Shown here: positions 4,477 to 58,802 of the stretch, piece by piece
Layout of the letters: the number at the start of each line of letters is the position of its first letter
Numbering within the stretch: the first letter of the stretch is position 1
Origin: a bacterium
Lineage (GTDB): Bacteria > Patescibacteriota > Minisyncoccia > UBA6257 > GWB1-50-10
Direction of reading: 5' to 3'
Assembly (NCBI GenBank): GCA_021815205.1
Contig: JAKAHD010000002.1
Coordinates: forward strand, 45,538 to 109,537
Length of the DNA: 64,000 nucleotides
Notes under the pieces: model-generated
What the model was told of the DNA's origin: nothing
Database searches by the model: none
The model's input: only the letters and a program-made list of their open reading frames with translations
Program-made: the position numbers and the translations under genes

Positions 4477-5235
4477 ATGAAGTACTTGCATCTTAGTGAG
4501 ACAGTGGTCGTAAAAAAGATTTCCGAGAAGGATAACATCGGAGTATTCCATATTGAAGGATTGTATACGGGATACGGCACGACCCTTGGGAACGCGCTTC
4601 GGAGAGTGCTCCTCTCTTCGCTTCCAGGAGCGGCGATTACCCAAATCAAGATACAAGGAGTGGATCACGAGTTTTCGACGCTTCCCGGCATGATGGAAGA
4701 TGTCGTCGAATATACGCTGAACCTGAAAAAGGTGAGATTTGTGTTTAACGCGGAAGAGCCGCAGACCCTTTCTTTAAAGGTAAAAGGGGAACGCGAAGTA
4801 ACGGCGGCCGATATTGAATCTTCCCCGTTCGTGCAGGTAATCAATAAAGATCTGCATCTTGCAACGCTCACGAAAAAGTCCGCCGAACTCAACATGGAAC
4901 TTACCGTCGAGAAAGGATTGGGGTACGTAGTCTCCGAGATGCATCGCGTGGAGCGTCTCTCTGTAGGAACGGTGGTCTTGGACGCAATCTTCTCTCCCGT
5001 CGTGCGCGTTGCGTTCAAGGTCGAGGACATGCGCGTGGGAGACAGGACCAACTTCAATCGTTTGGAGCTTGAGATAGAAACGGATGGCTCGATCAGCCCC
5101 TCCGAGGCGCTCCATAAAGCGGGGAAGATCATGAAAGATCATTTTGAGAAGATAGCGGAGATAGAAGTGACTCCGGCGGCGCTCGCCGAGGAAGCGGAAG
5201 AAGAGAAAGAAAAGAAAACAAAAAAGAAGAAATAA
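4477..5235 (+). CDS. rpoA: DNA-directed RNA polymerase alpha subunit, N-terminal domain only (no alpha-CTD)
   Basis: alpha-NTD motifs (GYGTTLGNALRRVLLSS.PGAAI); 252 aa ending in an EEAEEEKEKKTKKKK tail; no HhH alpha-CTD. Confidence 0.9.
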   Translation: MKYLHLSETVVVKKISEKDNIGVFHIEGLYTGYGTTLGNALRRVLLSSLPGAAITQIKIQGVDHEFSTLPGMMEDVVEYTLNLKKVRFVFNAEEPQTLSLKVKGEREVTAADIESSPFVQVINKDLHLATLTKKSAELNMELTVEKGLGYVVSEMHRVERLSVGTVVLDAIFSPVVRVAFKVEDMRVGDRTNFNRLELEIETDGSISPSEALHKAGKIMKDHFEKIAEIEVTPAALAEEAEEEKEKKTKKKK

Positions 5236-5240
5236 ATTTT

Positions 5241-5352
5241 GCTACGAAATACGAAGGTAGTACGAATATACGAAATTATAGCTTACGATTTATATCACAT
5301 AACTAACAAGGAACGCGGATTCGTATATTCGTACACAATTCGTAATTCGTAG
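5241..5352. repeat. TACGAA-type intergenic imperfect palindrome (T-element copy 2)
   Basis: gctacgaaatacgaagg..tacgaatatacgaa / attcgtatattcgta..aattcgtaattcgtag between rpoA stop and rplQ start. Confidence 0.8.
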
Positions 5353-5361
5353 AGAAATCCT

Positions 5362-6196: not shown

Positions 6197-6652
6197 ATGA
6201 CAACGACAACTCCAAAAACGAAAAAAACTTCGGCGGGAAATTCCGGAAAAGAGCGGTATCTCGAGGCGGTCGGAAGAAGAAAGACGGCGGTTGCGCGCGT
6301 CCGCCTTTTTACGGGGCGTCCAAAATCAAGCAAGGAACCAGAGATGATGGTGAATGGAAAGGGATTTACCGAATACTTCGGTCTCGTAAAACAGCAGGAG
6401 ATCGTACGCGCTCCGTTTCAGGCGCTCTCGCTTAAAGAGTACAACGCGACCGCGCTCGTGAAGGGCGGGGGCGTGCATGCGCAGGCGGAGGCGATCCGTC
6501 TCGGGCTCTCGAGGACGCTCGTCGCGATGAACCCCATCTGGCGCTCGAAATTGAAATCGCTCGGATTTTTGAAACGCGATCCCCGCAAAGTGGAACGCAA
6601 AAAGTACGGTCTGCGAAAAGCAAGAAGACCTCAGCAATGGCGTAAACGTTAA
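6197..6652 (+). CDS. rpsI: 30S ribosomal protein S9
   Basis: C-terminal GGG..AQA.A.RLG..RAL...KRDPR..ERKKYG..KARR..Q..KR. Confidence 0.95.
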   Translation: MTTTTPKTKKTSAGNSGKERYLEAVGRRKTAVARVRLFTGRPKSSKEPEMMVNGKGFTEYFGLVKQQEIVRAPFQALSLKEYNATALVKGGGVHAQAEAIRLGLSRTLVAMNPIWRSKLKSLGFLKRDPRKVERKKYGLRKARRPQQWRKR

Positions 6653-6716
6653 AAAAATCCCCTATCGGGGGATTTTTCTTTACGCCATTGCTGAGAGGAG
6701 GGGGTGATGGGGGAGG
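6634..6716 (+). repeat. 83-bp direct repeat copy 1 (rpsI 3' end + terminator + G-rich hairpin)
   Basis: caatggcgtaaacgttaaaaaaatcccctatcgggggatttttctttacgccattgctgagaggagggggtgatgggggaggg; identical again at 6795-6877. Confidence 0.85.
6652..6681 (+). terminator. rho-independent terminator of rpsI
   Basis: aaatcccc-tatc-ggggattt stem-loop then T-run; duplicated at ~6813-6842. Confidence 0.75.
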
Positions 6717-6794
6717 GCGGGAAATGAGCCCTCCCCCAAGCCGGAGCTCGCGAACCGAATGGTTCGCGGGAGTCCGCCAAAGGCGGACGACGCA

Positions 6795-6877
6795 ACAATG
6801 GCGTAAACGTTAAAAAAATCCCCTATCGGGGGATTTTTCTTTACGCCATTGCTGAGAGGAGGGGGTGATGGGGGAGG
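6795..6877 (+). repeat. 83-bp direct repeat copy 2 (includes second terminator copy)
   Basis: Perfect repeat of 6634-6716, 161 bp downstream. Confidence 0.85.
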
Positions 6878-6880
6878 GGC

Positions 6881-6972
6881 GGATCGCTGTATTGAAAAAG
6901 TGTGCGCTCCAAGACCGCCTGCCTGCGCAGGCAGGCGAGGCCGGTCTTACCCACTTTTTCAATACAGCGAAT
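6881..6972. repeat. ~90-nt near-perfect hairpin/palindrome at the convergent junction
   Basis: gctgtattgaaaaagtg...cactttttcaatacagc arms (17/17), aagaccg/cggtctt, central perfect palindrome cctgcctgcgcaggcagg. Confidence 0.7.
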
Positions 6973-10051: not shown

Positions 10052-10103
10052 CACTACCTCCTTTAATCTATACGGGCTGATAATAAGTATAGCATGAATA
10101 AAT

Positions 10104-10171
10104 CCCGTAAGAAGCTCACACGGGGTAGTAAACCCAGCGTTCGCCACGGGGATTTCTGCTTTTCACGGGAT
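10104..10171. repeat. MITE-like element X (terminal inverted repeats cccgtRagaagc / gcttYtcacggg)
   Basis: tcccgtaagaagctcacacggggtagtaaacccagcgttcgccacggggatttctgcttttcacggga; second copy at 47103-47229 carries a nested insertion. Confidence 0.7.
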
Positions 10172-10364
10172 AAAACGAAGAAACTTGAATTCTTTCCAAA
10201 TTGAAGTTACAGTAGGGATGTTACCCCGCACATAATAAAGCGCATAAGAGAAGCCTAGGTTATATCGGGGTTACCTTGTACAATAGCCGAGTGTAGTATA
10301 AAGAGCCTTATGTGCGGGGTGCTCAATTTTATAGTTGCTCGCTCCGCTCGCAAATAAAATTGGC

Positions 10365-15996: not shown

Positions 15997-16032
15997 TGCG
16001 TGCCATATGCGATATTGATCGGTGGAGCCCCA

Positions 16033-16262
16033 CGGCTTTACCCCCACACCATGGGCGTAAGCTCATGGTGTGAGGGTTTACAGCCGTGGCACCGCTCCAC
16101 ACGCTTCGTCGGGCGGAACCCTCCGAAGCGTATCCTCCTTCGCTCAAGCTACGGAGGATGCCCTCGTGCACCCCCGCATCTATGTATAGGTGTGGGGGTG
16201 CATCCCTGCATTTACGGGTGGGGCTTTCTCCGCTTCGCGGAGGAGGGTAGATTCAAGTATGA
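16033..16262. repeat. composite repeat C1 (contains Y-type cccccacac...gtgtggggg palindromes plus ~150-bp conserved core shared with 57375-57560)
   Basis: acggctttacccccacaccatggg...tttacagccgtggcaccgctccacacgcttcgtcgggcggaaccctccgaagcg shared with C2; second Y-like palindrome at ~16168-16203. Confidence 0.7.
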
Positions 16263-16297
16263 TAAGGGGAGGAGTATAATAAACAAAACATGAGAAT

Positions 16298-16720
16298 ATG
16301 AAAAAGAAGAAAATGCATATCTCGCTCATTTCGCATTACCCATCGCGTAAAGAATGGGAGAGCGCTTCGTGGGAGATAATTGTGCGATCTCCAGACATCC
16401 TTAACGCGCTGACTACTCCTCGCGAACGCCACGATTTAGTGATGCGCACCGCGGTAATAGAAAGAATTCATTCCGGGAAAAGCTATCGCGAGATTGGAAA
16501 AGAATTGTGGTGTTCTCCGCAGACCATAAGCAGCATCAAAAAGGCGCTTTATGAGAAAAAGTATCGAAGTTACCGAGAGCGGGGCAAAACAGAGCGGAAG
16601 AAAAGAGTGTATTCCTCGTTCTCCCGCAGAGCCGAACGAGAACCTAAGAAAAGAAAAGCGTACCGCGATTACGGTATGCCTCAATTATCGGGTATTTCAA
16701 GAAGACACCCGCTTAATTAA
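16298..16720 (+). CDS. TrpR-like (YerC/YecD family) HTH protein
   Basis: R..V...I..G.SYREIG......S..TISSIKKAL matches the YerC/YecD TrpR-like HTH pattern. Confidence 0.55.
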   Translation: MKKKKMHISLISHYPSRKEWESASWEIIVRSPDILNALTTPRERHDLVMRTAVIERIHSGKSYREIGKELWCSPQTISSIKKALYEKKYRSYRERGKTERKKRVYSSFSRRAEREPKKRKAYRDYGMPQLSGISRRHPLN

Positions 16721-18053: not shown

Positions 18054-18147
18054 CCGCTGATTCACCCCCCACACCCATGCATGGGTGTGGGGGTGAAGCT
18101 GATTTTCGCCGATACATTATCCGCGGTCATCAGATCACAATCAGCGG
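18054..18147. repeat. MITE-like element Z with nested Y palindrome (18063-18095)
   Basis: ccgctgatt...[caccccccacacccatgcatgggtgtgggggtg]gaagctgattttcgccgata...aatcagcgg; Z copy without insert at 46987-47036. Confidence 0.65.
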
Positions 18148-21800: not shown

Positions 21801-23628
21801 AGACATACTGACCGACCGCGCCGTCGAAGAAGACCTCCTCGAAGTGCCGCTCACCGACAAGGTATTTAGGCGCTTTTCCTGGATCTCGGGGATCGTGATA
21901 TTTCTTGTGCTCGCACAGATCGTGAACGTGGGAGTATTCCAGCACGGGTTCTATGTGAAGCGCGCGATCGCGAATATGAGCGATATAAAAACGGAGGTTG
22001 CGCCGCGCGGAATTATCTATGATCGTTTCGGAAATCCGCTTATCAAAAACGATCCCGCATTCGATGCGTTTCTTGTTCCGAGCGAACTGCCGAAAGACGC
22101 CGATTCGAGGAGCGCCATTATTGCGAGAGTAAGTAAGCTGCTCGGCCTACAGGAGGCGGAGGTGCGGATGAAGATCGAGAAACGGGACTGGAGTTTGCGC
22201 TCGGACCTGCTCTTGAAACACGCCATTTCGCACGATGAGATCGTTGCGCTTTCTTCCGCAGCGCTCCAGGGGATTCAGATCACCCCCTCGTTTGAGCGAG
22301 TGCCCATTATACCCTTTACGTTCGCGCATCTTTTGGGATATACAGGACTCGTGAACGAGAGCGACCTAAGGGGAAATCAGAATCTCGCCATTGACGATCA
22401 AGTAGGAAGAGCCGGACTTGAGCGCGTGTACGACACCTACCTCCGCGGAGCGGATGGGAAAACCATGATCGTAACAAATGCGCGGGGCGAGCGGCAGAAC
22501 GAACGGGTGATTGCGCAGCCGACGATAGGCGATTCCCTCGCCACCTATATTGATAAGGATATGCAGCGTTATTTTTACGACGAGCTGCAGACTAAGATTC
22601 GCGCGCTCGGAAGAAACGTTGGGGTGGGAATCGCAATGAATCCCCAGAACGGAGAAGTGCTCGCACTCTTCAGCATTCCTTCATACGATTCAAATCACGT
22701 CGCGGCGTCCCTGAACGCGCCCTTTAATCCGATGTTTAACCGCGCGGTGAGCGGGCTCTACAGCCCGGGTTCGACCGTAAAGCCGCTTGTCGCGACTGGA
22801 GCTCTGGCGGAGGGGATACTGGACCCGAACCATGAGATCTACTCCCCGGGGTATCTCGATATCCCAAATCCGTACGACCCCTCGCATCCATCCCGATTTC
22901 TGGATTGGCAGCCTCAGGGATGGGTGAATCTCTTCTCCGCACTTGCGCGTTCGAGCGATGTCTACTTCTACGAAGTGGGCGGGGGATTTGGCGATCAGCG
23001 GGGCTTGGGCATTACGCGCCTTAGAAGCTGGTGGGAGAAGTTTGGATTGAACGTAACAACAGGGATTGATCTGCCGAACGAGAATGCGGGCTTTCTCCCC
23101 GACCCGCAATGGAAAGAGCGGGTGAAGGGTGAACCGTGGCGCCTCGGCGATACCTTCAATGTTTCGATCGGGCAGGGCGATCTCGTGATTACGCCGATCG
23201 AGCTTCTTAATTATGTGAACGCGATTGCGAATGGAGGGAAATTCGTTACGCCTCGTGTTATGAAAGATATAAAAGACGCGCAAGGGAACATCGTTCTTAA
23301 GAGCGCCCCCTCGGTGCGTGCTGACATAAGTTCCGAGATAGGAAAAGTTCTTCCTCTTGTGCGGCAAGGTATGCGCGACACGGTAATGAAACCCTACGGC
23401 ACCGCGTATCTTCTGCATGATCTTCCCATCGAGGTTGCGGCGAAGACCGGTTCCGCGCAAGTCGAAAATAACGCGAAGACGAACGCATTTTTCGTTGGGT
23501 ACGCGCCGTACCAAGATCCGCAGATTGCGATCGTGATCCTTGTCGAGAATGCGAGAGAAGGGAGCTTGAACGTAGTGCCGGTAGCGCGGGATTTCTTTCT
23601 GTGGTACTATAAGAACAGAATGAAATAG
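21739..23628 (+). CDS. mrdA: penicillin-binding protein 2 (class B PBP)
   Basis: SxxK (STVKP), SxN, KTG(S) motifs; N-terminal TM; start may be 21769 (MECMHG). Confidence 0.85.
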   Translation: MESYPGLWYGMECMHGDLNLEDILTDRAVEEDLLEVPLTDKVFRRFSWISGIVIFLVLAQIVNVGVFQHGFYVKRAIANMSDIKTEVAPRGIIYDRFGNPLIKNDPAFDAFLVPSELPKDADSRSAIIARVSKLLGLQEAEVRMKIEKRDWSLRSDLLLKHAISHDEIVALSSAALQGIQITPSFERVPIIPFTFAHLLGYTGLVNESDLRGNQNLAIDDQVGRAGLERVYDTYLRGADGKTMIVTNARGERQNERVIAQPTIGDSLATYIDKDMQRYFYDELQTKIRALGRNVGVGIAMNPQNGEVLALFSIPSYDSNHVAASLNAPFNPMFNRAVSGLYSPGSTVKPLVATGALAEGILDPNHEIYSPGYLDIPNPYDPSHPSRFLDWQPQGWVNLFSALARSSDVYFYEVGGGFGDQRGLGITRLRSWWEKFGLNVTTGIDLPNENAGFLPDPQWKERVKGEPWRLGDTFNVSIGQGDLVITPIELLNYVNAIANGGKFVTPRVMKDIKDAQGNIVLKSAPSVRADISSEIGKVLPLVRQGMRDTVMKPYGTAYLLHDLPIEVAAKTGSAQVENNAKTNAFFVGYAPYQDPQIAIVILVENAREGSLNVVPVARDFFLWYYKNRMK

Positions 23629-23632
23629 CGTA

Positions 23633-23745
23633 GCTACGAAATACGAATTTTCTACGAATATACGAATCTCCACGTCGTTCTGATTTACCTCCGGCGGAGA
23701 AGACCCTTCGTGTTCGTATATTCATAATCAATTCGTAATTCGTAG
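23633..23745. repeat. TACGAA-type intergenic imperfect palindrome (T-element copy 3)
   Basis: gctacgaaatacgaattttctacgaatatacgaa / ttcgtatattcataatcaattcgtaattcgtag between PBP2 and greA. Confidence 0.8.
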
Positions 23746-23753
23746 AGAATCAC

Positions 23754-24212
23754 ATGCAAAATTATTTAACAAAGGAACGACATGAGGAGCTTGTCGCGGA
23801 GTTAGATGATTTAAAGACGAAAGGGCGGCAGTCGGTTTCTGAGCGGCTGCGGCACGCGAAGGATCTGGGTGATCTCTCGGAGAACGCGGAGTATCAGGCG
23901 GCGCGCGAAGAGCAGTCGCTTTTGGAGCAGAAGATAGTCCAGCTCGAGTCGCTTTTGAAGTACTCGTCGATTATCGAGCACCAGCCGAAGGGAGGTACGG
24001 CGGTGCGGCTCGGATCGAAAGTGAAAGTGAAGAAGAATGGGTCGTCCGTCGAGTACACGCTCGTGGGCTCGAACGAGGCGGACCCCTTTCAGAATCTTAT
24101 CTCGAACGAGTCGCCCTTGGGGCGCGAGCTCCTTGGAAAGAATGTGGGGGATACGATACAGGTGCAGACGCCGAAAGGAACGGCAGAATATATAATCGAA
24201 GAAATTCACTGA
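23754..24212 (+). CDS. greA: transcription elongation factor GreA
   Basis: LT..G...L..EL..L....R..V...I..A...GDLSENAEY..A...Q. Confidence 0.9.
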   Translation: MQNYLTKERHEELVAELDDLKTKGRQSVSERLRHAKDLGDLSENAEYQAAREEQSLLEQKIVQLESLLKYSSIIEHQPKGGTAVRLGSKVKVKKNGSSVEYTLVGSNEADPFQNLISNESPLGRELLGKNVGDTIQVQTPKGTAEYIIEEIH

Positions 24213-24214
24213 GG

Positions 24215-24320
24215 GCTACGAAATACGAATTTTGTATGAATATACGAAAATACGAGATCCTTCACTTCGTTCAGGATGACGGCTGTATTCGTATATTCGT
24301 AAGTGATTCGTATTTCGTAG
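24215..24320. repeat. TACGAA-type intergenic imperfect palindrome (T-element copy 4; W-element fragment in centre)
   Basis: gctacgaaatacgaattttgtatgaatatacgaaaatacga...attcgtatattcgtaagtgattcgtatttcgtag; centre gatccttcacttcgttcaggatgac. Confidence 0.8.
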
Positions 24321-24340
24321 CATAATCTTAATAGAGTTCA

Positions 24341-25783
24341 ATGTTAGAGGACATCATGCAAGAACGGCGGGAAAAACTTTCCCGCTATACAAAAGAAGCG
24401 GATCCGTATCCGGCCCGCGTGAAGAGAACCGTAACGGCGCATGAGGCGCTTCTTCGGTTCGGCGCATTCCTAAAGGCAAACAAAACGATATGGCTTACGG
24501 GGAGAGTGATGAGTATGCGCGACCAGGGAGGGATCGTGTTTTTGCATATTGAGGATAAAAGCGGAACGATTCAAATCATCTTGAGAAAAGAAGAAACGAA
24601 AGGGTTCCGGGTGCTTCAGAAGACGCTCGACAAGGGCGACTTCCTTGAGGTTGCGGGGAAGGCGATGAAGACGAAGCGAGGGGAGAAGAGCGTGCTCGCA
24701 TCGCGGGCGCGGATTATCGCGAAGAGTCTCCGGCCCATTCCCGATTCGTGGTTCGGGCTCGAGGATGCGGAGACGCGCCTTCGGAAACGTTACCTCGATG
24801 CGATCGTGCACCCCGAAACCAGAGAACTCATGGAAAAGAAAGCGGTGTTTTGGGAGACCGTTCGGGAATTTCTGAAGCACGCATCGTTTCTGGAGGTCGA
24901 GACGCCCGTCCTGGAGCCGATTCCGGGAGGCGCCGAGGCGGAACCCTTCATCACGCACCATAACGCTTTGGACAGGAACTTCTATCTCCGCATCTCGCTT
25001 GAACTCTCATTGAAAAAGATGCTTGTCGCCGGACTTGAGCGGGTATTTGAGATTGGAAGGATTTTTAGGAACGAGGGGATCGATCGCGAGCATCTACAGG
25101 ACTACACGCAGATGGAGTGCTACATGGCGTATGCGGACTATCACGACATGATGCGGCTTACCGAAAAAATGTTCAAAGCAATCGTGAAACGAACCTGCGG
25201 GACATTCACCACCTCTCAAGGAGGAAAGAAGGTAAACTGGGGAACAAAATGGAAGAGCGTTGACTATTATGCGGCGTTCAAAAGATATAACGGCATCGAT
25301 TTGAAATCCGCGCCGGTCGAATCTCTGCGCGCTCGCGCGCGCGAGCTCGGCATCCCGCTCGATGCGTCCGTCGGGAAGGGAAAACTTATCGATCTTATAT
25401 ACAAAAAAACGGTGCGCCCGAAACTCGTGAATCCTTGTTTTCTCGTGAATCCTCCGGTTGCGATCGAGCCGCTCGCAAAACGCGTGCCGGAAGACCGGGA
25501 TCGCGTGGAGCGATTCCAGATTGTCGCCCTCGGTACGGAGCTCGGAAAAGGATTCTCGGAGTTGAACGATCCGATCGATCAGCGGGCGCGATTCGAGGAG
25601 CAAATGGCGCTTCGAGACGCGGGCGACAAGGAAGCGCAGATGCTCGACGAAGATTTTATAGAAGCATTGGAATACGGCATGCCTCCCGCCGCCGGGTTTG
25701 GCATGTCGGAGCGCTTTTTTGCGGTTTTGATGGACAAGCCCGTACGGGAGACGGTATTTTTTCCTTTGATGAGAGAACGGTGA
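24341..25783 (+). CDS. lysS: lysyl-tRNA synthetase (class II)
   Basis: OB anticodon-binding domain then class II core (FLEVETP, RISLEL..K, FEIGRIFRNEG, ELG.GFSE). Confidence 0.9.
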   Translation: MLEDIMQERREKLSRYTKEADPYPARVKRTVTAHEALLRFGAFLKANKTIWLTGRVMSMRDQGGIVFLHIEDKSGTIQIILRKEETKGFRVLQKTLDKGDFLEVAGKAMKTKRGEKSVLASRARIIAKSLRPIPDSWFGLEDAETRLRKRYLDAIVHPETRELMEKKAVFWETVREFLKHASFLEVETPVLEPIPGGAEAEPFITHHNALDRNFYLRISLELSLKKMLVAGLERVFEIGRIFRNEGIDREHLQDYTQMECYMAYADYHDMMRLTEKMFKAIVKRTCGTFTTSQGGKKVNWGTKWKSVDYYAAFKRYNGIDLKSAPVESLRARARELGIPLDASVGKGKLIDLIYKKTVRPKLVNPCFLVNPPVAIEPLAKRVPEDRDRVERFQIVALGTELGKGFSELNDPIDQRARFEEQMALRDAGDKEAQMLDEDFIEALEYGMPPAAGFGMSERFFAVLMDKPVRETVFFPLMRER

Positions 25784-25786
25784 TAT

Positions 25787-25901
25787 GCTACGCAATACGA
25801 ATTTTGTAGGAATATACGAAAACGAAGAATATGCAAGCAGCGTGTTACTGAGCGGTATGTGTTGTACATTCGTATATTCGTAATTAATTCGTATTTCGTA
25901 G
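25787..25901. repeat. TACGAA-type intergenic imperfect palindrome (T-element copy 5)
   Basis: gctacgcaatacgaattttgtaggaatatacgaaaacgaa ... attcgtatattcgtaattaattcgtatttcgtag between lysS and serS. Confidence 0.8.
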
Positions 25902-25920
25902 CGAATTTTTATAGAAAATT

Positions 25921-27174: not shown

Positions 27175-27244
27175 ATGAGGCAGTAGGTAGCAGAATTTTA
27201 AAACCCTGTATACCATAGTGAGATAGTAATAAAATAGAACCCAC

Positions 27245-27278
27245 ACCAAGTTATTTCGCCATGGCGAAATAACTTGGT
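27245..27278. promoter_or_regulatory. perfect 34-bp palindrome accaagttatttcgccatggcgaaataacttggt (operator-like) at start of PaaX-like gene
   Basis: Exact self-complementarity; 42-bp version at 28042-28083. Confidence 0.7.
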
Positions 27279-27900
27279 AGAAAATGGAACGCGCGCCAAA
27301 ATAAGGCACATGACTCAAGGACAGAAAAGAAAAATGCAATTACGGCGCGGATCCCGTGCGCATCATATTATGAAATGTGTTGCATTGGGAGGCGGTGTGC
27401 TGGTTCTATCGCTTGTTGCTCCTATGGGCGGCGCACTCCTTGTGCGAAATTTGATCCGCGTGTATTTCAGGAGGAGATCTTTTGAGAAAAAACGGTTCCT
27501 GAACGACCTCAAGAGTCTTCGGGAACGCAGTTTGGTGGAGTATCATGAGTCACGGGACGGAACGGTGAGGATTACGTTCACAAAAGCGGGAAAAGAAAAG
27601 ATGCTTGAATATCGGGTGGACGAGATGAAGCTTAAAAGGCCAGAAAAGTGGGATAAAAAATGGCGTCTCGTAATGTTTGATATTCCAAGCGATCACAAAG
27701 AAGCGAGAGATGCATTAAGAAGAAAGTTGAAGAGATTGGAATTTTATCCTATGCAGAAAAGCGTGTATCTTACCCCGTATCCATGCGAAGATGAAATAGA
27801 ATTTTTAGCCGCGCTCTTTGATGTGAGGCGATATATACTCGTGCTTTACGCAAGCGGTTTTGAGAGCGAGGAGAAATTAAAACGGCATTTTGATTTGTGA
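27274..27900 (+). CDS. PaaX-like regulator: N-terminal hydrophobic segment, wHTH, Cas2/VapD-like domain (start uncertain, possibly 27310 or 27370)
   Basis: SLVEYHESRDGTVRITFTKAGKEKM (winged helix) then WRLVMFDIPSDHKEARDALRRKLKRLEFYPMQKSVYL (Cas2-like strand-helix-strand as in PaaX central domain). Confidence 0.5.
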   Translation: MVENGTRAKIRHMTQGQKRKMQLRRGSRAHHIMKCVALGGGVLVLSLVAPMGGALLVRNLIRVYFRRRSFEKKRFLNDLKSLRERSLVEYHESRDGTVRITFTKAGKEKMLEYRVDEMKLKRPEKWDKKWRLVMFDIPSDHKEARDALRRKLKRLEFYPMQKSVYLTPYPCEDEIEFLAALFDVRRYILVLYASGFESEEKLKRHFDL

Positions 27901-28041: not shown

Positions 28042-28083
28042 GCCACACCAAGTTATTTCGCCATGGCGAAATAACTTGGTGTG
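28042..28083. promoter_or_regulatory. perfect 42-bp palindrome ccacaccaagttatttcgccatggcgaaataacttggtgtgg (second operator-like copy)
   Basis: Exact self-complementarity; ~40 nt upstream of PKD-domain gene. Confidence 0.7.
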
Positions 28084-44441: not shown

Positions 44442-44589
44442 TAAAATAAGGAGATGGGATTGAAGATCAGGGATTTTTCCGCATCGGTTATCAGAAAAAT
44501 TTTCGGGCTTCTCGAATTTTTCCTTTTCTTAAGAGTAGTGCTTGAGTTTTTAAATGCGAATCCCGCCGCGGTCGTGGCGGATTATTTTT

Positions 44590-44635
44590 ACCCCCACACT
44601 GAGCGTAAGCCCATAGTGTGGGGGTTTATCGGATC
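44590..44635. repeat. Y-type palindromic repeat (acccccacac-N-gtgtgggggt)
   Basis: tttacccccacactgagcgtaagcccatagtgtgggggtttat; same tttaccccc.../...gggggtttac ends as copies at 16040 and 57385. Confidence 0.65.
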
Positions 44636-44899
44636 ACCGGTTTTTTCACATCCCCGTTCAATTCCATTTTTCCTTCTGCCCAATTATGGGGGCATGTGAT
44701 CGACATTGTGACGATATCCGCCATTATCGCGTACTGGATCGCATTCGAGATTATTATGAAATTCCTGACGTCAAAGAAAATCTACTACTCATAAGGCTGG
44801 AACGGAAGAAGATCTCAAGAAAATACGGGAGAAACAAATCCGAGTAGAGGTGGAATCTATATTTACGACACCTCCTCTTTATGGCATTATGTAGTATAT

Positions 44900-44983
44900 G
44901 CTCAGGTGTCGGAACTGGTAGACGATCACGACTCAAAATCGTGTGGCCGTAAGGCCGTGAGGGTTCAAGTCCCTCCCTGAGCA
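44900..44983 (+). tRNA. tRNA-Leu (anticodon CAA)
   Basis: Acceptor gctcagg/cctgagc, anticodon stem cacga/tcgtg with loop cuCAAaa, long variable arm ggccgtaaggcc, T-arm gaggg-ttcaagt-ccctc, discriminator A. Confidence 0.85.
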
Positions 44984-44985
44984 CA

Positions 44986-45555
44986 ATGGGAGTACGAACA
45001 TCATTTCATCGAGCGTCTAGTGCGGATACTTTAGAAAATAAAGAAAATCTTTCTTATGTCATTGGTGTAGCCATTGGTGATGGTAATCTCTCAAATCCAA
45101 ACGGAAGGACAGTGCGCTTAAGGGTAACTTGCGCCACTCAATACCCGAATCTTATCAGGCAAATAAAGAAATCTATAGAGAAAGTATTCCCGCATAATAA
45201 AGTATCCCTCGTGAAAAGAAAGGAGACATATTTGGATGTCAGCTGTTATTCCAATAAATGGGAGAGTATTCTTGGATGGAGAGCGTCTGGCGGTTCGAAA
45301 TACAAACAAAGCGTTTCTGTTCCCCAATGGATAAAAGAAAATAAAAGATATTCCATGAAATGCCTGCAAGGACTGTTAGTGACCGATGGCTCCTTATATC
45401 TTGATAGAGGGTATAGAATGATTAATTTTACGACTGTGATTCCACGGCTTGCGCAAGACGTGAGAGAAATGATTGTTAATTTATGGTTCAGCTCAAGAAT
45501 CTACAGATTAAAAACAAAAGGAAAAGATAAGTATGTTATTAAGAATAGCAACTAA
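44986..45555 (+). CDS. LAGLIDADG homing endonuclease (two-motif, free-standing)
   Basis: LSYVIGVAIGDGNL and LQGLLVTDGSLY motifs; AT-rich ORF starting 3 nt after tRNA-Leu. Confidence 0.8.
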   Translation: MGVRTSFHRASSADTLENKENLSYVIGVAIGDGNLSNPNGRTVRLRVTCATQYPNLIRQIKKSIEKVFPHNKVSLVKRKETYLDVSCYSNKWESILGWRASGGSKYKQSVSVPQWIKENKRYSMKCLQGLLVTDGSLYLDRGYRMINFTTVIPRLAQDVREMIVNLWFSSRIYRLKTKGKDKYVIKNSN

Positions 45556-46549: not shown

Positions 46550-46986
46550 CTCCTTCTCGCTTATTTTTCCCGGATTGTATCGAAGTTCAACCTCGCTATT
46601 TTTAGGATAGTGAAGTTGAACTTCGATAGGGTTTCCGGGTTCCGTATGTTTCATCAAACCTCGTGTTGACACGCGAGAGCGGAATGCTATCATTCTCTAC
46701 GGTTCGTGCCAATGTGAGGAGGTCTTGTCGTGTTCGAATTCGCACACGGCCGTTGCGGAGGAGGGTGCGACAGGCATTCGATCATTTGTATTGAGCTAAC
46801 GTATACGTTTCACTAAGACAGAGGATCATACTACGATCTCCGAAACGGTGTACCAAGTACTTCATATTTCGAGTTGCTCTTTGTTTATTTTTTATTGACA
46901 TTGTCCTCGAGATTTCTTTTGAAGGAACGGAATATCGTCGAAGGAGGCCTTGGTGTGCCTCTGTTTTAGTTTGTTCTCTTAGATTA

Positions 46987-47036
46987 CCGCTGATTGCGAG
47001 CTGATTTTCGCGGATATGGCATCTGCGGCAATCAGC
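46987..47036. repeat. MITE-like element Z (copy without nested insert)
   Basis: ccgctgattgcgagctgattttcgcggatatggcatctgcggcaatcagc. Confidence 0.55.
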
Positions 47037-47102
47037 TTCACCCCGTTAGAAGTTGCGCAGAAATAATGATGCGTCTTCTTCTATGATGCGATTATCATAA
47101 AT

Positions 47103-47229
47103 CCCGTGAGAAGCTCACATGGGGTAGTAAACCCCGCGTTCGCCACGGGACGAGGCATTCACCCCCACACTAAATGAGTGTGGGGGTTCATCCCTGTGGC
47201 ACGCCCGGGGTTTTCTGCTTCTCACGGGA
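47103..47229. repeat. MITE-like element X with nested Y palindrome (47161-47187)
   Basis: tcccgtgagaagctcacatggggtagtaaaccccgcgttcgccacggg[acgaggcattcacccccacactaaatgagtgtgggggttcatccctgtggcacgcccgg]ggttttctgcttctcacggga vs uninterrupted copy at 10104-10171. Confidence 0.75.
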
Positions 47230-47363
47230 TAAAGAACTGGGAGTGATCCCAATGTGAGACTTCTAACGGGGTAAAATCAGCGAAATTTTGAACAACAAAA
47301 AGAATACGGGGCAACAACAATTATGAATACCAACAATCCTCCGCTATAATATATAATAATTAT

Positions 47364-55765: not shown

Positions 55766-55881
55766 TTCATCAGGATCCATCTCAAAAGTACTCAGAATTA
55801 TGCTCTGGGACTCCTCGAATGCGCCAAGGAAGTTCAACTTCTTTAGAGAGTCGAACTTCGAAGACACTCCGCGTTGAAACA

Positions 55882-55915
55882 CCGAGGGTGCTATGACATG
55901 TCATAGCACCCTCGG
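55882..55915. repeat. perfect 34-bp palindrome ccgagggtgctatgacatgtcatagcaccctcgg (P family)
   Basis: Exact self-complementarity. Confidence 0.9.
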
Positions 55916-55955
55916 TGCGGTGGAAAAAAGGGGATGATTGTGTAATAATAAAGGC

Positions 55956-56927
55956 ATGAAGAAGAATGATGGTTTTATACCGCTGTGGGCGCTCCTCGTC
56001 GCGCTCGGCGTGATCGTAGTCGCGGGAGGAGTGTGGTATCTCAACTCATCGTCGGGGACAAAAGTATTTGACCCGAGTCCCAATGATCCGATTTGGCGGG
56101 TGTACACCGACACCGCGAACGGATTTGAAGTAAAGTATCCAACGGGAGTTACGCTCCAAGAGCAGAACGGCGACGTCTCCCTCTCTTTTCCGGGAGATAA
56201 GGCGCGCATTTATCTTAAGGTAACCAACACACTCTCCGCACCGCTTTTCGGGACGTTCGGCGGCTGGTATCAATATAACAAAGCCGCGGGGTCACCAAAT
56301 CTCGTGTCCACCGGCACAATCGGTAACTTCGCAGTAGATTATTTTATGCAAGATGCCGGCATGGGGTCGTGGGACAGAGCGATAAATGCGTATCAGACGA
56401 AGAACGGCACCTATTATGAATTATCCTTGTATTATCCGCGGGAATTCAGCGTGCCGGCCGGCGCTGATCACCAAGCCGCTATTGCGGAGGCAAGCGCTGA
56501 TTTGCACGATCTGAACAACGCATATGTGAAGACATTTACGAAAATTCTTAATACATTCCGGTTTACCCTGCCGCAGGGAGTGGAGAAGAAAACATGGAAC
56601 GGAATGACTTTCGACTATCCGGCCGGGTGGACGGTGAGGGAAGATACGTACGCGACACCCGCGCAGACAGCGGAAGGCACCCCACCTTCAGTGGTTGGTC
56701 TCAGTATCGAAAAAGTAACGGGAGCAGAACAATATTTTATTGAGATCGGCGGGCGTCAAGCCGACTGCCGCGGAAACAGCGGTTATGCGAAGTGCGTGAC
56801 TATTCAAACGCCGGATAAACAGCTTTGGCCCGTGCACACAATAAACAGAGACTCCGACACTTTGAGCGTTTTCGATTCAATCGTTCAGAGCATCGTGCAG
56901 CACGGCGGCGCGATCTACCGCTACTAA
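55956..56927 (+). CDS. hypothetical membrane-anchored/secreted protein
   Basis: Start at MKKNDGFIPLWALLVALGVIVVAGG (signal anchor); no motif recognised. Confidence 0.5.
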   Translation: MKKNDGFIPLWALLVALGVIVVAGGVWYLNSSSGTKVFDPSPNDPIWRVYTDTANGFEVKYPTGVTLQEQNGDVSLSFPGDKARIYLKVTNTLSAPLFGTFGGWYQYNKAAGSPNLVSTGTIGNFAVDYFMQDAGMGSWDRAINAYQTKNGTYYELSLYYPREFSVPAGADHQAAIAEASADLHDLNNAYVKTFTKILNTFRFTLPQGVEKKTWNGMTFDYPAGWTVREDTYATPAQTAEGTPPSVVGLSIEKVTGAEQYFIEIGGRQADCRGNSGYAKCVTIQTPDKQLWPVHTINRDSDTLSVFDSIVQSIVQHGGAIYRY

Positions 56928-56970
56928 AGTAGGAAAGTAGGAATCGAAAATCTGTTTTGGGGATAATATA

Positions 56971-56997
56971 AAAACCTCGCATAAGACGAGGTTTTTC
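56971..56997. terminator. bidirectional rho-independent terminator
   Basis: aaaacctcg-cataaga-cgaggtttttc; A-run upstream, T-run downstream; convergent genes on both sides. Confidence 0.8.
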
Positions 56998-57018
56998 TGT
57001 GATTAATGTTCAGATTTT

Positions 57019-57365
57019 TCAGATGCTCAAGGCGATCTGAATTAATCCCTTCGACACCTTTTTTCGGTCTTCCGGGCCAAGTGACTCTCCCGTGGGAATC
57101 ACATCGCTCACCATAAGGATGGTAAGAGCTCGTATTCCATACAGTGCCGCGCGGGTGTAGAGCTCTGCGCTTTCCATTTCAACAGCAAGGACCCCGTATT
57201 TCGTCCAAAGCTTCCACTCGTCCGGATATTCATCGTCGTAGAAGAAATCCGTTGCGAGGATGTTGCCGACTCGGATGGGAATAGTACCCCTTTCTCTGTA
57301 TCCGAGGGAAGAGGAAGAAGGGAGATAATATCGGAAATGGGAGACGTCGAAAAACTTACGGAGCT
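57019..57365 (-). pseudogene. deoD: truncated purine nucleoside phosphorylase DeoD-type (C-terminal ~110 aa only), disrupted by repeat C2
   Basis: RVGNILATDFFYDDEYPDEWKLWTKYGVLAVEMESAELYTRAALYGIRALTILMVSDV matches DeoD/PNP-UDP C-terminus; N-terminal ~130 aa replaced by repeat-derived sequence. Confidence 0.6.
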
Positions 57366-57374
57366 TGTGGAGCC

Positions 57375-57560
57375 CTACGGCTTTACCCCCACACCATGGG
57401 CTCATGATGTGGGGGGTTTACACCCGTGGCACCGCTCCACACGCTTCGTCAGGCGAAACCCTCCGAAGCGATCCTTCTTCGCCAAAGGCTACGAAGGATA
57501 CCCTCCTTTGCATTCATCCATGGGCTTACACCCGTGGTTTTCTGCGAAGGAGGGTAAAAA
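57375..57560. repeat. composite repeat C2 (Y palindrome 57385-57417 plus conserved core shared with C1)
   Basis: acggctttacccccacaccatggg...tttacacccgtggcaccgctccacacgcttcgtcaggcgaaaccctccgaagcg aligns with 16033-16130. Confidence 0.7.
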
Positions 57561-57635
57561 AGTTTCGTGATGACCTGAACTGAAAGCGGTTCCATAATTT
57601 TTGACCGGAGATTTTGAAAATATGATTTCTGCCCC

Positions 57636-57661
57636 AGGTGCTATGCTATAGCATAGCACCT
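57636..57661. repeat. perfect 26-bp palindrome aggtgctatgctatagcatagcacct (P family)
   Basis: Exact self-complementarity. Confidence 0.9.
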
Positions 57662-57708
57662 AATGTATTTCAATACCTGTAGACATTGTTATCCTCTCTC
57701 CTGCGAAA

Positions 57709-58224
57709 GTGCGGGAGAAGATCGGGAAAGAAATAAGAAGGGGGACAAAGGGTTACCCATGTTACTTTCTCGTTGATAACACAAAGCTCATTCCGCATCT
57801 GAGTTTGTGGCATGTACGGATGAGGGAGAAGGATATCAAAGTGCTTTCTGAGGAATTGAAGAAGCTGCTAAGAAAGCAAAATTCGATTGTCATACGCGCT
57901 CCGAGGTTTGAGGTCTCGAAGCGGAGCAACATAGTCAGTTTCGCGGTTCAGGGCTCTCAATCACTTTCCTCGCTTCAATTGCTCGGGTTGTGGAAAGGGG
58001 AGACGCTCAAAGAAGCAAGGAAGTACGGCCGACCGTTCCGGTTTGATCCGTACTTCACAATGGGGGTAATGAGGCGGCGCGAAGACACACTCACGGTGGA
58101 AAAGAATATGCAAGGAGTGAGATTCCAATTCGCCGCGAACGAGATTTACATTTGCGAGGTAAATCGCTGGTGGCAAGTGACGAGGATGATAAAAAAGATA
58201 ACGTTTGGAAAAAGTTATAAGTAG
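57709..58224 (+). CDS. hypothetical protein (single H-x-S/T-x motif; possible degenerate 2H phosphoesterase-like) flanked by P palindromes
   Basis: 171 aa; PHLSLWHV resembles one HxTx motif of the 2H family, second motif not found. Confidence 0.35.
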   Translation: MREKIGKEIRRGTKGYPCYFLVDNTKLIPHLSLWHVRMREKDIKVLSEELKKLLRKQNSIVIRAPRFEVSKRSNIVSFAVQGSQSLSSLQLLGLWKGETLKEARKYGRPFRFDPYFTMGVMRRREDTLTVEKNMQGVRFQFAANEIYICEVNRWWQVTRMIKKITFGKSYK

Positions 58225-58245
58225 GTAGTATCGAGTAATTGGTGA

Positions 58246-58271
58246 GGGTGTTATGACGCGTCATAACACCC
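58246..58271. repeat. perfect 26-bp palindrome gggtgttatgacgcgtcataacaccc (P family variant)
   Basis: Exact self-complementarity. Confidence 0.85.
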
Positions 58272-58490
58272 CAAATTTCTTGCGTGGTACCCCAGTGGTA
58301 AATAGGATGGATAAAAAATATAAGAACCCGGGATTGCTCCTGAGTTCTTTTCGTATCACCTCATAAATAAGCCGCGTATTTGATTTTACATCTTGCGGGA
58401 TGTAGAGTAACGAAACTGGAAGAGTCGCATTGCGCCTCATCGGCGCATCCGCCGCTGAGACGAAAGCAGTAAATAAGATGTACTACAAAA

Positions 58491-58580
58491 GGAGGGGTCG
58501 CATAGCGGTCTAGTGCGCAGTCCTGGAAAGACTGTATACCCGAAAGGGTATCGAGGGTTCAAATCCCTCCCCCTCCGCCA
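58491..58580 (+). tRNA. tRNA-Ser (anticodon GGA), CCA encoded
   Basis: Acceptor ggagggg/cccctcc, anticodon stem cagtc/gactg loop cuGGAaa, long variable arm tataccc-gaaa-gggtat, T-arm gaggg-ttcaaat-ccctc, discriminator G. Confidence 0.85.
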
Positions 58581-58619
58581 ATACACAAACAGGATATCTT
58601 TATGGTATCCTGTTTGTGT
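58581..58619 (+). terminator. hairpin terminator after tRNA-Ser
   Basis: atacacaaacaggatatc-ttta-tggtatcctgtttgtgtat perfect 17-bp stem. Confidence 0.6.
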
Positions 58620-58741
58620 ATCTTGACGTGCGGATTTGAACGGAACTTTCGCGCCTGCAGGGCAGGATTCAGCGAAAGTCCGTGGCTTCGGAGGAGCAAT
58701 TTCATTTGAGCGAAGCGAATATGTAAATTGCGGAGGAGAAG

Positions 58742-58802
58742 AAATCCCTCCCCCTCCGCCAATACACAAACAGGATATCTTTATGGTATCCTGTTTGTGT
58801 AT
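58742..58802 (+). repeat. 61-bp exact direct repeat of tRNA-Ser 3' end + terminator (copy 1 at 58561-58621); att-site-like
   Basis: aaatccctccccctccgccaatacacaaacaggatatctttatggtatcctgtttgtgtat occurs twice 181 bp apart. Confidence 0.85.

Follow-up and report, generated by a model that had tools for sequence, protein, structure and literature searches.

The 64,000-nt stretch analysed here (hereafter the window, with positions counted from its first nucleotide) belongs to contig JAKAHD010000002.1 of a bacterium of the Patescibacteriota (assembly GCA_021815205.1). It contains a 3' fragment of deoD, the gene of a purine-nucleoside phosphorylase, close to a hairpin-rich composite repeat, C, which is present in two copies (C1 and C2) and whose hairpins carry a much shorter palindromic hairpin, Y. 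In the account to which we give a slightly better than even chance, three separate things have come together: a deoD gene truncated in a hotspot of insertion, a mobile C repeat, and a distinct element, Y, that inserts at TNNA. An earlier, sequence-only reading of the locus had taken C2 to interrupt deoD and had concluded that a Y/C repeat family is, or was, mobile. Its conclusion on mobility is supported by a split yggT-like gene, by empty and filled insertion sites, by hairpins that are polymorphic between near-identical contigs and by C copies in several phyla, but not by deoD, nor by the gctgatt repeats that it had read as a target-site duplication. Mobility is most strongly supported for Y, whereas that of C is supported more indirectly.

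Insertion sites of the Y hairpin

Y consists of 9-bp inverted arms (CCCCCACAC/GTGTGGGGG) around a variable loop of 5-16 nt, and measures 25-35 bp without the duplicated target. All six copies in the window end in these terminal inverted repeats, with zero to two mismatches per arm and most arms exact. The half-site ACCCCCACAC was seen ten times against an expectation of 1.5, a count reached in none of 100 shuffled sequences. Half-sites are present wherever the sequence-only reading had reported Y palindromes, namely nested in the repeats X and Z and at 44590-44635; the last copy, which it described as standing alone, does contain Y but sits inside a gene.

This gene provides the clearest case of insertion. 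The yggT-like gene at 44454-44794 (+ strand) is interrupted at 44591-44628 by Y and a second TTTA, Y being flanked by TTTA on both sides. Deletion of these 38 nt (Y with one TTTA) fuses two frames into an open reading frame (ORF) of 100 aa, and this ORF matches the Pfam family YGGT with 29.2 bits (cut-off 27) in an alignment that crosses the junction. The unrepaired 81-aa ORF has no Pfam match, and an uninterrupted yggT homologue is found in a relative (L007). The insertion of Y broke yggT.

At the other sites, filled and empty versions of the same repeat can be compared. Hairpin 1 of C in other genomes reads CCACGGCTTTACAGCCGTGG, with no Y; in C1 (16041-16080) and C2 (57386-57420) its loop holds Y after TTTA, followed by a second TTTA, a site that is empty in every C copy outside the window. 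C1 bears a further Y in the 5' strand of hairpin 4 (16171-16202, including the second TGCA), and the corresponding site is empty (CATTCA/TCC) in C2 and in all other copies. In the long form of repeat X (X2, 47097-47240), Y and a second TTCA occupy 47162-47190 within a 31-nt piece, and the short form (X1, 10098-10175) lacks this piece and with it the hairpin. The nesting is therefore three levels deep, since the long form of X holds the 31-nt piece that in turn holds Y. The 4-nt direct repeats around Y are thus TTTA (C1, C2 and yggT), TTCA (X2) and TGCA (hairpin 4 of C1). The copy in repeat Z (18063-18095) is flanked by TTCA and TGAA, which are inverted, and the Z copy at 46985-47040 has no Y. 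This Y-less copy carries the same ACCGCTGATT..AGCTGATTTT as the copy at 18054-18147, so the gctgatt repeats bordering the latter are part of Z and do not represent a target-site duplication.

The copies of Y in hairpin 1 of C1 and C2 occupy the same site, have in common an inner sequence that is absent from the other Y copies and are each other's closest relatives. This suggests that Y entered one C copy, which within this lineage then either gave rise to the second by copying or converted it. Across 80 related loci Y was matched only twice, as compared with the six elements of the window.

Structure and distribution of the C repeat

C1 (subtype a, 16022-16251, + strand) lies between a 214-aa ORF and a Trp-repressor-like helix-turn-helix (HTH) gene, while C2 (subtype b in its 3' hairpin, 57367-57558) lies on the + strand, opposite to deoD. 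The homology of the two copies, proposed earlier with slightly different ends, was confirmed at 86% over 146 nt, with 83% in a 92-nt core and 97% in the 35-nt 5' end. All copies of the family run from GTGGAGCC at the 5' end to GGAGGGTAAA at the 3' end. Without their nested inserts, full copies (n = 12) are 155-158 nt each, around a core of about 156 nt; the exception, L090, measures 166 nt because a 9-nt extension of its terminal mini-hairpin was kept. Two subtypes are distinguished at the 3' end, one uniting C1 with L083, L084, L088, L089, L090 and L098, and the other C2 with L086 and L095. The copy nearest to C2 outside the window is that of L086 (88% over 136 nt), and C1 is 92-97% identical to L083 and L084 across the aligned stretches.

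Both copies fold very stably (C1 -149.5 kcal/mol, z -10.7; C2 -101.6 kcal/mol, z -7.65). The family structure of four hairpins was set by hand on insert-free cores; RNAalifold on the raw MAFFT alignment was dropped because misplaced nested inserts led to a wrong hairpin 1. In this structure 92% of cells are paired, versus 34-45% in slid controls, and compensatory change affects 8 pairs (27 cells), with a covariation score reached by none of 500 shuffles. Mismatched pairs comprise 12 G.U and 12 A.C, hence no strand bias, and C folds equally well on either strand. For these two reasons, the constraint looks like one on DNA hairpins and not on one RNA strand. The sequence-only reading had suggested that the C core could be a noncoding RNA: the four hairpins are indeed conserved with compensatory change, but neither strand shows a sign of being favoured as RNA, and the core matches no Rfam family. 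A scan of the window against Rfam 15 returned only two tRNAs above the gathering threshold, and C1, C2 and the minimal copy of L084, when scanned with permissive settings, gave only chance matches below threshold.

A covariance model of C (R1) recognises only C1 (123.7 bits) and C2 (132.6 bits, E 1.5e-34) in the window. Repeat X was considered as a diverged C and rejected (R1 8.9 bits, E 0.39); X2 and C share a short CATTCA/TCC..TTTCTGC motif. As a separate observation, positions 2090-2240 of L003 hold three hairpins within an ATP-grasp ORF, of which GTGATGC..CCACGGGCGTAAGCCCGTGG..GCATCAC resembles hairpin 1 of C (R1 17.7 bits).

R1 found no copy over the 80 related Patescibacteria loci (1.1 Mb), a 21-mer of the core had no match in 185,579 species-representative genomes, a looser pattern had none in the IMG/VR viral contigs, and the minimal copy matched neither PLSDB plasmids nor INPHARED phages. 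A conserved 21-mer found five further copies in JGI metagenome contigs, and a search of a protein database with six-frame peptides of the core returned 26 spurious 'proteins' that overlap more C copies, for several of which the DNA was fetched. Across contigs with a host GC of 0.45-0.61, C is 85-97% identical and keeps a GC of 0.57-0.67 (0.62-0.67 in every copy except C2). The host of L085 is Binatia-like, its IlvB being 82-92% identical to the listed homologues, most of whose named sources are Candidatus Binatia. Public databases also contain 'hypothetical proteins' (P0066-P0091 and P0213-P0221) that are C read-through, some of them fused to YbeY, ParB_N or Usp; these C-derived entries are annotation artefacts. 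A search of representative proteins with the read-through ORF of C2 gave 11 weak matches, one of them to an unrelated satellite-like protein.

Several copies abut or enter genes. The C of L088 adjoins a 75-codon 5' stump of ybeY, a parB-like ORF reads through C in L089, and L085 and L087 each hold half a C, broken in the middle of the element and joined to the middle of an amidohydrolase gene, of which a 3' fragment is left. C has hairpins at both ends, and GTGGAGCC and GGAGGGTAAA are not complementary, so that terminal inverted repeats are lacking. Its 5' flanks (TTTT, AATG, TATG, AAAG, GCTC, TGCA, GTTT, ATCG and GCTT) reveal no conserved target, and the flanks at 10 loci have no duplication in common. 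Aligning the copies of C and Y, as proposed earlier, has defined the ends of C and uncovered the 4-nt duplications of Y, but it yielded no target duplication for C. Only from its distribution and context do we infer that C is a mobile, non-coding and non-autonomous repeat that has spread between unrelated bacteria, with at least two copies in this genome.

Other small hairpins are nested in C in other genomes. A 42-nt GC-rich hairpin lies in hairpin 1 (L086, L090), in hairpin 3 (L096, L097) and, reversed, in hairpin 4 (L083). It is present in L096 and L097 and absent from L095, on contigs that are 99.5% identical. Likewise, L099 differs from L098 (contigs 98.5% identical) by a 33-nt insert with CCGA..CCGA flanks. 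Such mini-hairpins have moved recently, as judged from their presence and absence between near-identical contig pairs.

A palindrome of 24-28 bp, GGTGCTATGACATGTCATAGCACC, occurs in six copies (15167, 15961, 16735, 55880, 57630 and 58240) that bracket single-gene modules around C1 and C2, including the Trp-repressor-like HTH gene (16283-16717). One of the six, the D3 palindrome AGGTGCTATGCTATAGCATAGCACCT (57630-57662; families D3/D4), is the one next to C2. The fetched loci (1.2 Mb) contain a related palindrome, CTATGACATAAAATGTCATAG, only in L095, L096 and L097, where it is found some 230 nt downstream of C.

The deoD remnant in the htpX/tRNA-Ser(GGA) spacer

The remnant (57019-57294, - strand) codes for the C-terminal ~90 residues of a purine-nucleoside phosphorylase of the DeoD type and includes the gene's own stop codon (57019-57021). 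It is part of a 128-aa ORF (57019-57405, - strand) that the sequence-only reading had correctly assigned to the C-terminal part of DeoD/PNP. The ORF matches Pfam PF01048 (PNP_UDP_1; E 2.4e-11, 43.9 bits, cut-off 25.1), its residues 38-107 corresponding to profile positions 137-206 of 233, and thus represents only the C-terminal part of the ~230-240-aa fold of full-length DeoD, without the N-terminal phosphate-binding part. The nearest intact relative found by database search, P0002 (224 aa, almost full-length), aligns through residues 151-222 only, to 57294-57079 of the window, with 82% amino acid identity; at the DNA level, 57284-57089 is 79% identical to L002 636-831. In a multiple alignment with full-length homologues the fragment extends to the native C-terminus. 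Between the remnant and P0002, the ratio of nonsynonymous to synonymous substitution rates (dN/dS) is 0.047, with dS saturated, and there are zero frameshifts or stops. The low ratio and a frame intact to the native stop indicate that purifying selection acted on deoD during almost the whole divergence and that the gene was truncated recently. Without its N-terminal 150 residues a phosphorylase cannot make the fold; therefore, we read the piece as a recently 5'-truncated pseudogene remnant.

The N-terminal part is missing, as reported earlier: residues 1-150 of P0002 have no counterpart encoded anywhere in the 64 kb (tblastn runner-up E 0.49), and no separate N-terminal piece of a split gene lies nearby in the window. 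The claim that C2 interrupts deoD is unproven. DeoD homology ends at about 57285-57294, 72-82 nt short of C2. The translation of the unique spacer in between (57295-57366) has about 1 identity per 27 residues in the protein alignment with P0002, and short-word blastn of 57285-57366 returned only the self-match among the fetched sequences. C2 is thus not at the breakpoint of deoD, since the intervening 72-82 nt match nothing. The 128-aa ORF does run into C2 by 39 nt, as had been stated, but the DeoD homology stops before the repeat; its first 37 codons are read-through, about 24 of them in the unique DNA and 13 in C2, and the Y hairpin contains its ATG (57405) in the loop. Beyond C2, about 70 nt and a palindrome are followed not by a 5' half of deoD but by an unrelated + strand gene (57709-58224), whose product matches the 2'-5' RNA ligase family weakly and below the threshold. 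In assemblies of NCBI, Logan and ENA, 5 contigs have the identical 128-aa ORF across the junction of C2 and the deoD remnant; as the same ORF recurs in three sources, the junction is real and not a chimera.

Relatives whose HtpX is 64-86% identical to that of the window have the order GroEL..LemA-HtpX in common, and nothing matches past htpX. After htpX, tRNA-Ser(GGA) is the second conserved anchor (L003, L005, L006, L008 and the window, 55766-58490), the genes in between being unrelated from species to species. The gap between the anchors is shortest in L008 (10 nt) and longest in L005 (6 kb), with 1.7 kb in L003 and 2.7 kb in both L006 and the window. This spacer is an insertion hotspot, whose lineage-specific cargo in the window thus includes the deoD remnant and C2 with their neighbours. 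The comparison with related genomes that had been proposed earlier yielded no intact orthologous locus, as synteny in L003-L008 ends right after htpX; P0002, the only close intact deoD, sits on an 859-nt contig without context. Given a break outside C2, an unrelated far side, no synteny after htpX and a variable spacer, C2 is unproven as the cause of the truncation. It may or may not have played a part, and deletion or recombination in the hotspot is no worse an explanation of the truncated gene than an insertion of C2.

Further observations were made around the two anchors and elsewhere in the window. A perfect 61-nt direct repeat (family D9; 58561-58621 and 58742-58802), the first copy of which overlaps the 3' end of tRNA-Ser (58491-58580), resembles the att-site duplication left by an integrating element. 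In the closest relative (L003, 1400-1600), the final ~17 codons of htpX are duplicated with about 75% identity on either side of a hairpin-rich insert of ~95 nt, which appears to have supplied a replacement gene end. Not far from yggT, an ORF with a weak LAGLIDADG_3 match (44986-45555) begins 2 nt past tRNA-Leu(CAA) (44900-44984). Identical 38-nt palindromes, CCACACCAAGTTATTTCGCCATGGCGAAATAACTTGGT, at 27241-27278 and 28043-28080 flank a gene with a PaaX / Cas2-like domain (27238-27897). The repeat families D1, D2 and D5 comprise a 91-nt tandem-like pair after rpsI (6632-6722 and 6793-6883) and five intergenic copies of CTACGAAATACGAA..ACGAATATACGAA / ATTCGTATATTCGTA motifs (163-301, 5222-5356, 23614-23749, 24196-24324 and 25768-25905). 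The latter stand upstream of housekeeping genes and may be promoter or operator elements.

Competing explanations and known systems

For deoD, the main competitor is a sequence of events in which C2 inserted into the intact gene and both the 5' half and the original junction were later lost through an adjacent deletion or rearrangement. The gene is truncated on the side that faces C2, just 72-82 nt away, the truncation looks recent, and other C copies abut gene stumps (ybeY in L088, the 3' amidohydrolase fragment in L085 and L087). We nonetheless consider it unlikely: the breakpoint is not at the end of C2, the DNA in between is neither deoD nor C, the 5' half is nowhere in the window, and in relatives the spacer turns over without any C. 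That the truncations are mimicked by chimeric joins at repeats is extremely improbable. Different genomes from the same kinds of samples do have C in common, and the C of L085 and L087 breaks mid-element against mid-gene sequence, as such joins might do; but these two contigs show the same junction independently, the breakpoint in the window lies outside the repeat, and 5 contigs of three independent origins carry an identical ORF across it.

The nature of the hairpins leaves room for other explanations. A horizontally shared structured RNA, either a gene or a cis-acting element, whose helices are selected and whose loops tolerate nested hairpins, would agree with the very stable folds (z -6.7 to -10.7), the compensatory changes at 8 pairs, the strong sequence conservation between hosts and the restriction of inserts to loop or junction positions. 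It is quite improbable in view of wobble pairs without strand bias (12 G.U, 12 A.C), strands that fold equally well, the absence of an Rfam match and of any consistent promoter, terminator or neighbouring gene around the copies, the several copies per short DNA stretch and the positions of copies inside or against ORFs. Still less probable, and indeed very unlikely, is a local origin of the hairpins by template switching, quasi-palindrome repair or gene conversion between repeats, with the 4-nt flanks as microhomologies. The inverted flanks of two Y copies, the widely varying loops of Y and the lack of a transposase in the window would fit such an origin, but it would have to produce the same 9-bp arms at six unrelated sites, one of them a coding sequence, and four events with perfect 4-nt direct repeats of three different sequences; moreover, in other genomes the same 42-nt hairpin recurs in different hairpins of C and in both orientations.

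Some findings also weigh against our own account of a mobile C, a separate Y and a deoD gene cut in the hotspot. The ORFs of the window encode no domain of a transposase, integrase, reverse transcriptase or HUH nuclease, so the cognate transposase for which the sequence-only reading had proposed a search is not among them, and an autonomous relative with the ends of Y and a transposase is likewise absent from the 64 kb. In two cases (Z at 18063 and L058), the flanks of Y are inverted instead of direct. An empty-site allele of C itself was not found, and part of the cross-phylum evidence for C comes from short metagenome contigs. The strict conservation of the C hairpins, with inserts only in or beside loops, could equally fit a function. 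C1 and C2 have the same Y insertion yet belong to different 3' subtypes, and because of this an extra step of recombination or gene conversion is needed.

The homology limits, the structure, the empty and filled sites, the repair of yggT and the distribution of C were observed directly; the enzymes, the succession of steps at deoD and any continuing activity of an element in this genome belong to the inferred part of the favoured account. Most likely, deoD would have been cut by deletion or illegitimate recombination in the spacer hotspot and not by a simple insertion of C2. C may move, or may have moved, by a single-strand mechanism that recognises hairpins, or as the passenger of a larger element. 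Y would insert at TNNA with duplication of these 4 bp, as expected of a cut-and-paste transposase acting in trans, and would have landed both in the yggT coding sequence and in AT-rich loops of the repeats C, X and Z.

On this account, the window displays three nested levels of small mobile repeats, one of them with a clean target duplication and a gene knock-out. An identity of 85-97% for C across genomes of differing composition and phylum is unusual for a non-autonomous repeat and points to a shared vector or a direct exchange of DNA. In an unlikely extension, C would be a functional module that can be transferred, serving as a single-strand origin, as a recognition site or as the guide or scaffold of a recombinase; or else an episymbiotic Patescibacterium would exchange it with bacteria of soil or groundwater, such as Binatia. 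If such an exchange took place, shared families of C and its hairpins would mark DNA traffic between host and symbiont, and the hairpins of 25-42 nt (Y, the 42-nt and the 33-nt hairpins) would be among the smallest transposable units, specialised for hairpin loops. There is also a lesson for annotation, as read-through of these repeats has created artefacts, namely the 128-aa 'PNP' ORF, the 81-aa stump of yggT and, in public databases, dozens of 'hypothetical proteins'.

Among known systems, Y behaves like a minimal miniature inverted-repeat transposable element (MITE). Bacterial MITEs, such as Correia/NEMIS, RUP and Nezha, are usually 50-300 bp long. Y resembles them in being non-coding and multi-copy, in its perfect terminal inverted repeats and short target duplication, in disrupting genes and in nesting within repeats; however, its 25-35 bp are far below their usual size, and we know of no parent insertion sequence with its ends. 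C differs from MITEs in having neither inverted ends nor a target duplication, and its architecture most resembles either mosaic palindromic repeats or derivatives of single-strand transposons with hairpin ends. To the latter belong the palindrome-associated transposable elements (PATE) derived from IS200/IS605, which have no inverted ends and no target duplication but hairpins at both ends. C agrees with them in all these features, whereas it lacks a conserved target of 4-5 nt on its 5' side and has no TnpA or TnpB gene nearby.

The mosaic alternative is represented by the repetitive extragenic palindromic sequences (REP), the bacterial interspersed mosaic elements (BIME) and the REPINs, which are short GC-rich extragenic palindromes, mobilised by RAYTs and dispersed through genomes as mosaic composites (PMC3116915). 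As a mosaic of hairpins, C is BIME-like. Nevertheless, the 5' GTAG conserved in REP palindromes is absent from the arm ends of Y and C, and the ORFs of the window encode no Y1-transposase (RAYT) domain. Y has target duplications, unlike the products of HUH/Y1 transposition, which makes none, and C is common to several phyla, whereas REPINs track their resident RAYT vertically.

Two further groups recall the nesting and the position in genes. The small dispersed repeats (SDR) that Elhai and colleagues reportedly described in the Nostocales in 2008 are said to be of ~21-27 nt and nested, with ends derived from empty and filled sites. Like these very small, mobile-looking repeats, the present hairpins lie in one another and in hairpins, although the sequences and the phylum are different, and Y shows a clear 4-bp duplication and a gene knock-out. 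The Rickettsia palindromic elements (RPE), palindromic repeats of ~100-150 bp, are found both between and within genes, where they are in frame and the host protein is kept. The repeats described here also enter coding genes, but yggT is frameshifted, and the genes beside C are stumps. In the literature that was searched, mobile repeats of this small size are not described for Patescibacteria. We read Y and C as one form of small, non-autonomous mobile repeats.

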